IMG/VR virus record: IMGVR_UViG_646311924_000013
Length of the DNA: 38,725 nucleotides
DNA from: a virus
Taxonomy: Duplodnaviria; Heunggongvirae; Uroviricota; Caudoviricetes
Strand: one strand, 5' to 3'
Position numbers: made by a program. Of this stretch, positions 6,001 through 12,000 are shown in pieces. Within the stretch, counting starts at the first letter, position 1. Every line of letters starts with the position of its first letter.

Positions 6001-9000
6001 CGACGCCGTGGCAGCACATATTTTGTATCAAAAGCCGGGGAGCGTTATCGCCGGGCAGTGGCGCTTATTGTTCGCCAGCAGCGGCTGAAATTAAGCCTGT
6101 CCGGACGGCTGGCAATAAAAATTATTGCAGAACCACCGGATAAGCGCCGCCGTGACCTGGACAATATTCTGAAAGCACCGCTGGATGCGCTGACGCACGC
6201 GGGGTTGTTAATGGACGATGAGCAGTTTGATGAAATCAATATTGTACGTGGAAAGCCAGTATCTGGTGGACGTCTGGGGGTGAAGATTTACCCCATAATG
6301 CTTGAAGGGCAGGTTAAAAAATGAAACTGGAAGATTTACCGAAATACTACTCCCCAAAATCCCCTGGCCTGACCGATGCATCGGCCTCAACGTCAAAAGA
6401 TGCGCTGAGTATCACTGATGTGATGGCCGCGCAGGGCATGACACAGAATCGGGCTGAGATGGGGTTTTCTGCGTTCCTTGGGAAAATGGGCATTAGTATG
6501 AATGACAGAGAGCGGGCAACAGAATTGCTGACAGAATATGCACTCAGTCGGTGTGATCGCGTGGCGGCGTTAAGAAAACTCCCGGCAGAAATAAAACCGG
6601 CAGTGATGCGTATTATGGCTTCGTATGCGTTTGAAGATTATGCCCGTAGCGCGGCGAGCAAAAAACAGTGCCCCTGCTGTCACGGAAAAAAATTTATTGA
6701 AAGCGAGGTTTTTACAAACAAGATCCAGTATCCGGATGGTAAGCCGCCAGTGTGGGCAAAGTGCACAAAAGGCGTGTATCCGTCTTACTGGGAGGAATGG
6801 AAAAAAGTCAGGGAGGTGGTAAAAGTTGCCTGTCCGGAGTGTGGAGGGAAGGGAGAGGTATCCACTGCCTGTAAAGATTGTCGTGGGCGCGGTGTTGCCA
6901 TTCATCGTGAAGAGTCGGAAAAACAGGGTGTGCCGGTTTTCAGAAACTGTCAGCGTTGTGGTGGGCGTGGCTATGAAAGATTACCTTCAACGGAGGCATT
7001 TAATGCCATATGTAATGTAACCGATGCCATATCTCTTGATACATGGAAAAAAACAGTTAAACGTTTTTACGATACGCTGGTGGTGCAGTTTGATATTGAA
7101 GAAGCATGGGCAGAACAACAACTGAAAAAGGTGACCAGATAGCTTTGTTGATTTTTCCCGAATCTGTGGTAAATTTGCCCTAACGATGGGCGTTTTATGC
7201 CTGACGTTAGAAGATTTTTTACACCCCGCCGCCTGGCGGGTTTTTTATGACTGAAATCGCGTCAGTACAGTAAACGCGCTGGTGGCGGTGAATACCGGTC
7301 TTTCAGCTTGCTGGCTTTTTTGACAAGAGTTATTGGTGTGTCACGTTAACCGGAAAAGGGAAAAAAGCATGCTAAAACAGCAGGATATGACAGAAACCGC
7401 CAGAGCAGTGTTTAATGAATTAAGCGTCACCGAACCGGCGACAGTCGGGGAGATTGCGCAGAATACTTACCTTTCACGCGAACGCTGCCAGTTAATACTG
7501 ACCCAGCTTGTTATGGCGGGTCTGGCAGACTATCAGTTCGGTTGTTACAGACGCCTTCAGTCCTGAAGGCTTTTTTATTTGTGGTAAATGGGCGGCTGGT
7601 GGGTGTTAGGGGCACTCACCAGCCATCTGCTCATGCGTCTGGATCACAAGCAAACCTCAGGCCCACTGCTTTGCGCAAAAGCAGAATGAGCCTATCAGAG
7701 ACAGGCTTAATGATCCATGTTTAACACTGTAAAAATATCCAGTTGTGAGTTGATCAACGCTGACTGCCTGGAATTTATCCGGTCGTTACCCGAAAATTCT
7801 GTTGACCTGATAGTCACGGACCCGCCGTACTTTAAAGTGAAGCCTGAGGGCTGGGATAACCAGTGGAAGGGCGACGATGATTACCTGAAGTGGCTGGACC
7901 AGTGTCTTGCGCAGTTCTGGCGGGTGCTGAAACCTGCCGGAAGTCTTTACCTGTTCTGTGGCCATCGCCTGGCATCTGACATTGAAATCATGATGCGTGA
8001 ACGCTTCAGTGTGCTGAACCATATTATCTGGGCGAAGCCGTCCGGACGCTGGAACGGGTGCAACAAGGAAAGCCTGAGGGCGTATTTCCCCGCCACAGAG
8101 CGCATTCTGTTCGCGGAACATTATCAGGGGCCGTATCGTCCGAAAGATGCCGGGTATGAGGCGAAGGGCAGGGCACTGAAACAGCATGTGATGGCTCCGC
8201 TGATTTCTTACTTTCGTGATGCGCGCGCTGTCCTGGGGATAACGGCAAAACAGATTGCAGATGCCACAGGAAAGAAAAACATGGTGTCGCACTGGTTCAG
8301 TGCCGGTCAGTGGCTGCTGCCGAACGAAAGCGATTATCTGAAATTACAGGCGCTGTTTGCCCGGGTGGCAGAAGAGAAGCATCAGCGCGGTGAACTGGAA
8401 AAGCCCCACCACCAGCTGCTGGAGACGTATACTTCACTGAACCGGCAGTATGCGGAACTGCAGAGTGAATATAAACATCTGCGGCGGTATTTTGGCGTGA
8501 CGGCGCAGGTGCCGTACACGGATGTGTGGACGCATAAACCGGTGCAGTACTATCCCGGGAAACATCCGTGCGAAAAACCGGCAGAAATGCTGCAGCAGAT
8601 AATCAGTGCGAGCAGTCGTCCGGGTGACCTGGTTGCAGATTTCTTCATGGGGTCGGGTTCGACAGTCAAAGCCGCGATGGCGCTGGGGCGTCGTGCAACT
8701 GGCGTTGAGCTGGAGACTGAACGTTTTGAGCAGACGGTCAGGGAAGTACAGGATTTAGTCAGTCAGAACGGATGATATTGCAGGATTAGTTACGTACCGT
8801 TATTATCCTGCGCCCGGCCCTTTAGCTCAGTGGTGAGAGCGAGCGACGCATAATCGCCAGGTCGCTGGTTCGAATCCAGTACAACGCGCCACACTTATTT
8901 TCCCTGGCTCGCTTTTGCGGGCCTTTTTTTAAATGTCTCACAATTCAGGCGGTTGACTGTTGTCTGGTTTGCGGGGAGTTTGTTAAAAGAAACTGGCATG

Positions 9001-12000
9001 GTGAATCCCCCTGTGCGGAGGGGCAATCAGCAACCAGGTATATGGGGTAATCGCGGATTCAGGTGCTGGTACTGAATTCACCGGGAGGCACCCGGCACCA
9101 TGCAAGAAAAAGAATGTGCATGCAAACATGCCCCTCTCCGGAGGGGCTTTTTTATGGGTAAAAAAATGCCCGAATGGGTTCGGGCAATAGCATGAGATAC
9201 TGATATTGTTGTGTTGTTATCGTGTGGATTTTAACCAGGGTTTATCAGGCTGCGCAACTGCGTGGCCTTTTTTCATTTCTTGGGCTGTAGTCCCCGTGTG
9301 TCATTCAGGCTTCCGGACTACAGCCCACTCCATATCTGATTTAATACACTATCCCGGCCGGGAGGAATAATGACATTTAAACATTATGATGTTGTCAGGG
9401 CGGCGTCGCCGTCAGACCTTGCTGATGCACTTGCGCAAAAAATTCGTGAAGGATGGCAACCATATGGTGGGCCGTTTTCTTCGTATACGGATGATGGCGC
9501 AGCACTTATTCAGGCGATTGTCGCAGAAGGTGATGTGAGCACACCTGTTGTGGTGAAGCCGACAGGTGGAGAAGGTGCAGTAATCAGCGCCACCAGCGAC
9601 CCCGGGTATTACTTTGTTGTGGTTCTGGCAGGGCAGTCAAACAGCATGGCATATGGTGAAGGCCTTCCGCTGCCGGAGACATATGACCGTCCGGACCCGC
9701 GCATTAAGCAGCTGGCGCGTCGCAGTACGGTGACACCGGGCGGTGTCGCCTGTAAATATAACGACATCATTCCGGCGGACCATTGTCTGCATGATGTGCA
9801 GGACATGAGCCGCCTTAACCATCCGAAAGCGGACCTGTCAAAGGGGCAGTACGGAACCGTGGGGCAGGGGCTGCATATCGCCAAAAAACTGCTGCCGTTT
9901 ATACCGGCGAATGCGGGCATTCTGCTGGTTCCGTGCTGTCGTGGTGGTTCAGCGTTCACCACCGGAGCTGATGGCACATACAGTGACGCGAGTGGTGCCT
10001 CGGAGAATTCAACCCGCTGGGGTGTGGACAAGCCGCTGTATAAGGACCTTATCGGTCGAACAAAAGCAGCACTGAAGAAGAATCCGAAAAATGTGCTGTT
10101 TGCCGTGGTGTGGATGCAGGGGGAATTTGATTTTGGCGGTACGCCGGCAAATCACGCAGCACAGTTTGGTGCGCAGGTTGATAAATTCCGTGCAGACCTG
10201 GCGGATATGGCAGGTCAGTGCGTCGGTGGCTCTGCTGACGGTGTTCCCTGGATATGCGGGGACACGACGTATTTCTGGAAGCAGAAGAACGAATCCTCGT
10301 ACCAGACGGTGTACGGCAGCTACAAAAACAAAACGGAAAAGAATATCCATTTCGTACCGTTCATGACGGATGAGAATGGGGTGAATGTGCCGACGAACAA
10401 ACCGGAAGAAGACCCGGACATTCCGGGTATCGGATATTACGGTTCGAAATGGCGTGACAGCTCAGCCACCTGGACGTCACAGGACAGGGCGAGCCATTTC
10501 AGCGCCTGGGCACGCCGTGGGATTATTTCCGACCGTCTGGCAACGGCGATTTTGCGCCATGCGGGAAGAGTGGCGCTAAACGCGGGGGCATCATCGACAG
10601 TATCAGAGGTGCGCCCGTCATCGCCTTCCGGTGCAGAAGCCACAGGCGTCACAACACTGCTCTCTTACCTTGCCAGCGAGTCAGAGGGAAGCCTGAAAGT
10701 ACAGGGATGGTCAGCCAGTGGCGGCAGGGCAGAAGTGGTCAGCGATGCGGAGGGAACCGGAGGTAAGGCAGTGAAGCTGACCAAGGAAGCCGGTAAAAGC
10801 AGCTGGGTGCTGGAGTACGCCGCGGGCAACGGTGCGGCTCTGTTACAGAAAGGGGGGCAGATTCGCTGCCGCTTTAAGGTTTCGGGAGCGCTGGCTGCGA
10901 ACCAGTATGTTATGGCGTTTTACTGGCCGGTATCTTCACTGCCACAGGGCGTTGCCCTGACCGGAGACGGGGGGAATAACCTGCTGGCAGCGTTCTACAT
11001 CCAGACAGATGCAAAAGACCTGAATGTGATGTACCACAATGCGAAAGTGGCGACAAACAACCTGAAACTGGGAACCTTTGGCGCATTTGATAACGAATGG
11101 CATACGCTGGCCTTCCGCTTTGCCGGGAATAACAGCCTTCAGGTGACGCCGGTTATTGATGGTCAGGATGGCACACCGTTCACGCTGACGCAGTCACCGG
11201 TCAGTGCATTTGCGGCGGATAAACTGCATGTGACAGACATTACCAAAGGTGCGACTTACCCGGTGCTGATTGACAGCATTGCGGTGGAAGTGAACAACAC
11301 AGACACTGCGGCATGATAAAAAAAACCGCCAGCGACAGGAATGGACGCTGGCGGTGGTAATACCTATGGAGAAAAAATAAAGGAACGATACTTTCGTGCT
11401 CTGGTTTTTTAAATGAAAACAGTTCTTATTGTCAACAATAACGGAAAGAAATTATGACATTTCTGAACCAGTTAATGCTGTACTTCTGTACGGTGGTCTG
11501 TGTGCTGTATCTCCTTTCGGGTGGGTACAGGGCCATGCGTGACTTCTGGCGCAGACAGATTGACAAAAGGGCCGCTGAGAAAATCAGCGCCAGTCAGTCA
11601 GCCGGAAGCAAACCCGAAGAGCCGCTCATTTAGCGGCAACTTTCTTAATCACATCTTTCGACGAGAAAATCCCATGTCAGAAATTACATCCCTGGTCACT
11701 GCTGAGGCAGTGAAGGAAGTCCTGCGCTCTGAAGAAGTCCTGAGTGCACTGAAACAAAAACTTCGCCATAACCTGGAAGCGCGTCTTGATGCAGAAGTGG
11801 ATGCCATTCTGGATGAACTGCTGGGCGCACCGGCAGCTCCGGAGCCGGAAGGTATCGCGGGTGAGGGGAGTGCTTCAGATAGCGGTGACCCCACACCGGA
11901 CAGCGACATGATGATGTAAGCATGCGTCAGGGACCATCGGTGTGTGCCGGTGGTCTTTTTTATTGTTGTGAGCTTCCGGATTGCGGGAGACGGGGTATGA

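Follow-up and report, generated by a model that had tools for sequence, protein, structure and literature searches.

Convergent STnc100-family and AgvB small RNA genes between the cargo slot and nanS-p of a Shiga toxin phage-like prophage

The noncoding island upstream of nanS-p

The virus record IMGVR_UViG_646311924_000013 (38,725 nt, the whole of which is called the window below) holds the start of the late region of a lambdoid prophage that resembles Shiga toxin (Stx) phages and is of the type found in enterohemorrhagic Escherichia coli (EHEC) O111 and O157. The subject of this work is an island at positions 8892-9369, flanked by a tRNA-like element and by the esterase gene nanS-p, which a preliminary description had presented as toxin-free, with structured RNA substituting for the toxin operon. 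The island is very probably a conserved noncoding module of two small RNA (sRNA) genes, one of the STnc100 family and the other agvB, lying between nanS-p and a variable cargo slot that is empty in this prophage. From 5' to 3', the locus comprises a dead ileZ/argO tRNA chimera, terminator T1, the empty slot, the STnc100-family sRNA gene on the plus strand down to terminator T2, agvB on the minus strand, terminator T3, a hairpin and the ribosome-binding site of nanS-p.

A terminator scan placed hairpins at 8906-8923, 9130-9147 and 9247-9268 on the plus strand and at 9186-9167 on the minus strand, which agrees with the three plus-strand and one minus-strand terminators reported previously. The island alone gave six hits, four of them distinct and strong, where dinucleotide shuffles gave 0.4 +/- 0.7, an enrichment of about 15-fold. 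As had also been described, the plus and minus hairpins within 9130-9186 stand back-to-back, and the A/T spacer between them (9148-9166, TTTTTTATGGGTAAAAAAA) is the source of the U-tail for both. The back-to-back terminators are the 3' ends of two convergent sRNA genes that match Rfam families, the STnc100-family gene and agvB.

The genes on both sides were confirmed with Pfam. RusA (5950-6324) and the Q antiterminator (6321-7142) are encoded upstream, and an N6/N4 DNA methylase gene (7717-8775) lies between Q and the tRNA-like element. On the 3' side, nanS-p (9370-11316) encodes a NanS-p-type esterase of 648 amino acids (aa) with DUF1737, SASA and DUF6645 domains, and it is followed by DUF1378 and then by a P21-type holin. 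The order Q, tRNA, gap, nanS-p and lysis in the preliminary description is supported by these domains, except that the methylase gene had been left out.

The anti-sRNA AgvB

The gene agvB, encoding an anti-GcvB sRNA, occupies 9161-9222 on the minus strand. In an Rfam covariance-model scan it matched RF02702 with 96.5 bits (gathering score 56), all 62 of the 62 model positions agreeing with the consensus, and its 62 nt are base-for-base identical to AgvB1 from prophage Sp10 of E. coli O157:H7 Sakai. The RNA consists of a 5' seed (CAACACAACAA), a small hairpin and the Rho-independent terminator 9186-9167, which the terminator scan found to be followed by T7; the 3' region of about 42 nt that is conserved in the family is present and ends in this terminator. 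The 5' sequence of AgvB is CGAUAACAACACAACAAUAUCAG, and the minimum free energy (MFE) fold, with a z-score of -3.75, leaves its first 21 nt single-stranded. When the pairing with region R1 of GcvB from strain MG1655 (GUUGUGUUGUUGUG) was recomputed, nt 2-15 of AgvB formed 14 contiguous pairs, and the GcvB R1 target consensus CACAACA is present. AgvB is convergent with the STnc100-family gene (8967-9159, plus strand), with Q upstream and nanS-p downstream.

A probable sigma-70 promoter of agvB was read by eye on the minus strand at 9228-9257. It consists of a -35 box TTGCGC (9257-9252), an 18-nt spacer and a -10 box TAAAAT (9233-9228), and it ends 5 nt before 9222, where transcription would start approximately. 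In all nine of the nine loci compared, the -35 TTGCGC is invariant and is found with a -10 box at the same spacing (TAAAAT, or TATTAT in the second class of anti-sRNA mentioned below).

AgvB has been studied in O157 Sakai by Hfq-RNA crosslinking and northern blots (Tree et al. 2014, PMC4104026). In that work EcOnc01a and EcOnc01b are AgvB1 and AgvB2 of prophages Sp10 and Sp17, with a 60-nt primary transcript whose 5' end was determined by RNA ligase-mediated rapid amplification of cDNA ends (RLM-RACE), and AgvB is destabilised without Hfq (PMC4104026). Its 5' region with CACAACA forms a duplex with GcvB and relieves the repression of DppA, so that AgvB acts as a sponge of a core sRNA, and deletion of both agvB copies made the strain less competitive in bovine terminal rectal mucus (PMC4104026). 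Convergent sRNA pairs 3' of the late promoter PR', at the cargo (moron) site upstream of nanS-p, were reported for Sp3, 4, 5, 9, 10, 11, 15 and 17 (PMC4104026). The Sakai coordinates given by Tree et al. are about 138 nt off those of NC_002695.2, and the copies were therefore matched by sequence and by northern probe.

The window and the two Sakai copies (AgvB1 and AgvB2, RF02702) share the genomic position, the probable promoter, the terminator and the seed match to GcvB R1. The sRNA itself does not differ from that of Sp10, whereas the surroundings do: the cargo slot of Sp10 holds a TciA/TerB-like gene and that of the window is empty, and the host prophage of the window is of the O111 type. 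The AsxR/EcOnc27 pair (AsxR, RF02703), located after stx2AB in phages of the Sp5/933W type, has the same order and about 72% identity over 8934-9366, but the 5' seed of AsxR, whose target is FnrS (PMC4104026), differs from that of the window AgvB. The window copy reaches 43 bits against an AsxR gathering score of 63.

A second class of anti-sRNA was observed in some Stx2a phages and in phi315 (L006 2745-2830, L007, L008 and L009), on the minus strand between STnc100 and T3. It has a TTGCGC -35 box, a TATTAT -10 box, a body of about 75 nt and the terminator GCCCGCGTCTCCCAGCGCGGGC, differing from AgvB in body and terminator, and it remains below the Rfam gathering scores for both AgvB and AsxR.

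The STnc100-family sRNA

The partner of agvB is an STnc100-family sRNA gene at 8967-9159 on the plus strand, which ends at T2 (stem 9130-9147 followed by a U-tract, T6 in the terminator scan). The Rfam covariance-model scan matched RF02076 over its full length (model positions 1-206) with 144.5 bits (gathering score 47). The RNA is identical to the Sp10 copy at 180 of 195 positions (about 92%), and the surrounding segment 8978-9477 gave 92.9% with Sp10 in blastn. Compared with the Rfam STnc100 consensus and with the Sp5 copy, the window copy is shorter by about 14 nt in the central variable arm (model positions about 64-90).

On sequence grounds, 8967-9159 is the ortholog of EcOnc06/EcOnc27 of O157 Sakai. 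The northern probe for EcOnc06 is antisense to 9038-9072 with two mismatches and matches Sp10 exactly, and EcOnc06 is therefore an STnc100-family RNA. EcOnc06 (Sp17/Sp10) and EcOnc27 (Sp5, downstream of stx2B) are placed and oriented like the window gene with respect to the anti-sRNA and nanS-p. The published sizes are about 177 nt for EcOnc06 and about 235/247 nt for EcOnc27 (PMC4104026). Near-identical STnc100-family copies bind Hfq in O157 Sakai (PMC4104026), and of eleven STnc100 copies listed in EDL933, RNA-seq reads were seen for most and a northern blot confirmed one (PMC5331693). The family is related to the PasD sRNAs of enteropathogenic E. coli (EPEC) and is often linked to a sialic-acid esterase gene (bioRxiv 10.64898/2026.05.13.724894).

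A conserved 5' extension, TCACAATTCAG..TTGAC, is kept in the window and in Sp5 and is without counterpart in Sp10. Because this extension is kept, the window RNA may start near 8940 and not near 8985, with a length nearer to 215 than to 177 nt. Two candidate promoters were considered. TTGACT at 8953-8958 has a poor -10 box and does not convince alone, and a TWAAAT box at 8929-8934, just 5' of the conserved TCACAATTCAG, fits the 235/247-nt EcOnc27 and is likewise unconvincing alone.

The longest open reading frames (ORFs) of the island are 54, 48, 43 and 40 aa, and a Pfam search of the island ORFs gave zero matches, which upholds the earlier statement that 8892-9369 holds no plausible ORF. Small proteins encoded in the island, such as those of a 54-aa ORF starting with TTG (9206-9370) or of a 48-aa ORF on the minus strand (8983-9129), are highly unlikely. 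ORFs of 31-54 aa do exist; RefSeq lists 8983-9129 as a partial hypothetical protein, the ORFs called here by RefSeq and GenBank annotators comprise ECs_1960 in Sakai, a pseudo "hypothetical protein" in EC4115 and, in phi315, three from PHANOTATE, and ribosome footprints have been reported for some of the EDL933 STnc100 copies (PMC5331693). These annotated ORFs, however, vary in strand and position from record to record, and the stretches are fully covered by covariance-model matches to RNA families. Moreover, homologs show indels whose lengths are not divisible by three, and Sp5-type copies (GGATTCATG) lack the TAA stop on which the 54-aa ORF ends. At 9282-9326 the homologs measure 44, 45, 49, 51, 52 and 54 nt, so no reading frame is kept there. 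Coding was rejected on the Pfam result and the frame-breaking indels. Public records probably err in annotating ORFs and a "tRNA-Met" at this locus.

The cargo slot and the position of stx

The junction at which related phages hold stx2AB, stx1AB or TerB-type genes could be located to the base. In the Stx2a phage Stx2_12E129_yecE (L008), 7940-8879 of the window (methylase, ileZ) is matched at 97.9%, 8860-8929 matches the 3' end of argO and the terminator, 8934-11866 is matched at 93.4%, and a 1335-bp stx2AB segment sits precisely between window positions 8929 and 8934. The Stx2 phages L002, L007 and L008 all behave in this way: the left homology stops at 8929 and resumes at 8934, with 1335-1346 bp of stx2AB in between. 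Because the homology with the Stx2a phage is broken only at 8929|8934, the slot corresponds to the 4 nt 8930-8933 and is empty in the window. No stx was found between the tRNA element and nanS-p, where the flanks abut. The earlier placing of the island at the stx position thus holds to the base, with the slot forming only its 5' edge. Prophages of this type do carry cargo here, as the Stx2a phage with near-identical flanks and stx2AB demonstrates.

The RNA module was found with and without toxin genes. In VT2-Sakai (Sp5) the order is Q, PR' and terminators, ileZ-argN-argO, a terminator, stx2A, stx2B, a 486-bp intergenic region and nanS-p, and the intergenic region holds AsxR and, convergent with it, the STnc100 copy EcOnc27. 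This layout recurs in Stx1 phages, in a Shigella Stx phage and in other Stx2 phages, and in every Stx phage examined the STnc100, anti-sRNA, T3 and hairpin module lies directly downstream of stx2B or stx1B. Across 10 annotated loci the module follows stx2B, stx1B, TerB or nothing. Other occupants of the slot are the TciA/TerB-like gene of Sakai Sp10 and, in PPyecE_EH1910, a plasmid-stabilisation gene with a regulator and TerB. Among 80 IMG/VR loci retrieved through NanS-p, STnc100 stands upstream of nanS-p in at least 59. The slot carries stx2 in about 17 of the 80, TerB-type genes in about 17 and stx1 in about 7; in about 18 there is no cargo, and the tRNA or methylase abuts the sRNA module. 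The sRNA module is constant and the cargo varies (stx1, stx2, TerB-like or nothing). The site is the same as the lambdoid moron site downstream of PR' and Q in which stx1 and stx2 lie, with tRNA genes and a terminator to its left and the sRNA module and nanS-p to its right. The methylase gene between Q and the tRNA element is shared with some Stx2a phages (L008), unlike Sp5.

These data bear on the proposal that structured RNA stands in place of the toxin operon. In this reading the RNAs would be an alternative cargo, an RNA moron swapped for stx, and it agrees with the location of the island between the tRNA element and nanS-p, where Stx phages hold stx, and with the variation of the anti-sRNA between phages (AgvB, AsxR and the third class). 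However, Stx2 phages (L002, L007, L008) and Stx1 phages (L003, L010) carry stx followed by the whole module, and the break at 8929|8934 leaves the RNAs outside the slot. A swap of this kind is accordingly most improbable, and the proposal does not stand.

A second possibility is that the island is the scar of a recent toxin loss, the window being a former Stx2a phage that lost stx2AB by deletion. Its flanks are 93-98% identical to those of Stx2_12E129_yecE, a neighbouring deletion is clear (the ileZ/argO chimera, which removed argN and most of two tRNAs), and the prophage is decaying, with IS629/IS1203 in its lysis region. On the other hand, the junction TTTAAATGTCTCACAATTCAG fits the right-flank type of Stx1 phages, phi315 and PhiR49_2 (GTTAAATRC.TCACAATTCAG) and is unlike the Stx2 right flank GTGTAATCTGTGTCACAATTCAG, and Stx2 junctions have no direct repeat. 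Empty slots are also common, as the survey of IMG/VR loci indicates, and occur in the inducible phages phi315 and PhiR49_2. Cassette exchange by recombination in the conserved flanks fits the data equally well. We regard recent toxin loss as unlikely; under either history the nature of the island is unchanged.

Two further arrangements were observed. Phage PhiR5_2 (L009) carries two tandem STnc100-family copies, at 2062-2255 and 2531-2740, before a single nanS-p. Phage PhiR49_2 (L011, 2866-3310) combines three intact tRNAs and an empty slot with an STnc100 copy, but lacks nanS-p; its module runs directly into the holin gene, so that the esterase is not an obligatory neighbour of the sRNA module.

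Proposed function of the module

Taken together, the covariance-model matches, the convergent terminators and the comparison with Stx phages argue strongly for a constant sRNA module beside an empty cargo slot. A working model can be put forward on this basis. In a lysogen, without Q, agvB would be transcribed from its own promoter, as shown by others on identical sequence (PMC4104026), and the A/C-rich 5' end of AgvB would pair with the G/U-rich R1 seed of GcvB, leading to relief of dppA and similar targets (PMC4104026). The STnc100-family RNA would likewise be made and bound by Hfq, as others have shown on near-identical copies. T1, T2 and T3 would confine the transcription of tRNA, sRNA and cargo, so that nanS-p and the lysis genes may stay silent without Q. 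Upon induction, following the paradigm of lambda and the Stx phages, Q-modified polymerase from PR' would pass all three plus-strand terminators into nanS-p and the lysis genes, and late transcription would cross agvB and its promoter in the antisense direction.

Several points weigh against this account. All facts concerning transcripts come from copies in O157 Sakai and EDL933 that are identical or nearly so, and we infer the insulation by T1-T3 and the read-through under Q. A scan for consensus sigma-70 promoters reported nothing in 6000-12500 and nothing in the island, and the promoters of both sRNAs were read by eye and from conservation. The shuffle control for the AgvB-GcvB pairing was weak (35 of 1000 shuffles equalled it) because any A/C-rich sequence pairs with R1. 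The STnc100 fold alone lies only marginally beyond shuffles (z = -1.9). Finally, the 5' end of the STnc100-family RNA is uncertain, at about 8940 or about 8980-8990, as the published sizes of different copies (177 versus 235/247 nt) put it near 8980 or near 8940.

The preliminary description was right on the structured RNAs, and that these give discrete transcripts is supported by published northern blots, 5' RACE and Hfq crosslinking on an identical AgvB and a partner about 92% identical (PMC4104026), but the description had not recognised them as the named and characterised sRNAs STnc100 and AgvB. The finding holds and clearly exceeds chance, but it is already known: the arrangement has been described, both RNAs belong to curated families, and one of them has been functionally characterised. 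As a discovery it carries little weight, the convergent pair at the moron site and the AgvB sponge mechanism having been published in 2014 and the STnc100/PasD family surveyed since. Its meaning is that the toxin-free gap of a Stx-like prophage is a constant regulatory-RNA module that accompanies every cargo and does not replace the toxin. The base-exact slot also helps to annotate stx-negative relatives of Stx phages.

T3, the nanS-p leader hairpin and the ribosome-binding region

Terminator T3 (9247-9273, plus strand) lies on the late-gene strand and has a 9-bp stem (9247-9268 in the scan) followed by T6. Its core, CTGCGCAACTG, is invariant in nine of nine loci, and T3 cells were paired in 87.9%. 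In a distant nanS-p lineage, with a NanS-p of 74% identity, the stem is kept and the loop is different. T3 and the agvB promoter share DNA (9228-9273), the -35 box TTGCGC falling within the loop and 3' arm of T3. The conservation of both elements suggests a possible coupling of late-strand transcription with anti-sRNA expression.

Further downstream, a nanS-p leader hairpin at 9282-9326 on the plus strand has a 12-bp stem, conserved with covariation, an MFE of -28 kcal/mol and a z-score of -5.9. The stem is kept in 18 distinct variants. Its outer six pairs are near-fixed, and positions 7-9, 11 and 12 change with compensation (TA/CG/TG, AT/GC/TG, GC/TG); an alignment-based pairing count found double changes at three pairs. 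The pairs were counted by script with both ends anchored, as MAFFT misaligned the inner 5' arm in L048-type variants. The leader diversity comes from a NanS-p scan of viral contigs, and a scan of genome contigs yielded five loci and no useful new leader variants. Several of the U.G pairs would be A.C mismatches on the other strand, which indicates a plus-strand RNA structure. It lacks a U-tract and was ruled out as a terminator.

The ribosome-binding region and start codon of nanS-p lie at 9353-9372 on the plus strand (CCCGGCCGGGAGGAATAATG). The GGGAGG Shine-Dalgarno sequence is partly within a small CCC/GGG hairpin, with a pairing of 91.7%, and GGGAGGA is invariant in the alignments.

It is conceivable, though doubtful, that 9223-9345 acts as a cis-acting RNA/DNA switch of two parts, T3 over the agvB -35 box and the hairpin 9282-9326. 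In the first part, agvB would come under reciprocal control, either by late transcription antiterminated by Q or, in a lysogen, by termination at T3. In the second, the 12-bp hairpin would be a processing or stabilising element that sets the expression of nanS-p and the lysis genes from the late transcript. Neither the hairpin nor the T3/promoter overlap appears to be described in the papers on these sRNAs, and no literature search was aimed at them. Both offer small leads on the coupling of late transcription, the anti-sRNA and nanS-p expression.

The tRNA-like element and terminator T1

The element at 8816-8891 (plus strand) is a chimeric pseudo-tRNA, with its 5' two-thirds of the ileZ type (anticodon CAT) and its 3' end of the argO type, joined in the shared T-arm CTGGTTCRAATCCAG. 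Alignment to the tRNAs of Sp5 showed that U33 is replaced by G and that argN is absent. The sequence is that of an ileZ/argO chimera produced, as the alignment indicates, by recombination in the shared T-arm that deleted argN. In RefSeq it bears the label "tRNA-Met" in hundreds of genomes. ARAGORN found no tRNA in the whole window, the match to Rfam covers only positions 7-64 of the tRNA model (37.3 bits), only two of seven acceptor-stem pairs are possible (5' GGCCCTT versus argO 3' ACAACGC), and a working tRNA was ruled out on the ARAGORN result, the acceptor stem and G33. The tRNA-like element of the preliminary description therefore stands as ileZ/argO-derived sequence and not as a working tRNA.

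Terminator T1 (8906-8929, plus strand) consists of the stem 8906-8923 and a T-tract, with a fold z-score of -4.4. It is homologous to the terminator after argO and before stx2A in Stx2 phages, 8860-8929 matching 3097-3165 of the Sp5 locus. Its homolog is annotated in VT2-Sakai as a "possible rho-independent terminator".

Prophage type and neighbouring elements

More than 200 complete E. coli genomes, O157:H7 EC4115 and TW14359 among them, contain the segment 8780-9380 with 100% identity. Megablast against phage records returned none covering at least 80% of 8700-9500; despite this, a distant-mode search and the search of E. coli genomes indicated that the island arrangement is common. The IS1203/IS629 junction at 12250-12650 was present only in O111 genomes, and the window is thus an O111-type copy of the prophage.

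A full IS629/IS1203 copy, 99.9% identical to that of Sp5, occupies 12433-13742, just past the holin gene. This O111-specific insertion is inside the ORF that comes after the holin in O157 EC4115, and the start of the window (1-930) is a truncated copy of the same element. Given IS629/IS1203 in the lysis region, the prophage is probably lysis-defective.

Directly after the stop codon of Q, a likely PR' was read by eye at about 7149-7176 (TTGATT-16-TAAATT, preceded by a TG). It is followed at 7225-7240 by a strong terminator (tR'), which would yield a leader RNA of about 50-60 nt, analogous to the 6S RNA of lambda. A second plus-strand terminator is found at 7553-7570, 3' of a 66-aa ORF.

In the intergenic region between nanS-p and DUF1378, 11318-11394 on the minus strand gave a weak Esr41-like covariance-model match (30.9 bits against a gathering score of 102), adjoining a GC-rich hairpin with A and T runs on its flanks. 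This segment may be another prophage sRNA. PasA and PasC are reported to sit between the esterase and holin genes (bioRxiv 10.64898/2026.05.13.724894).

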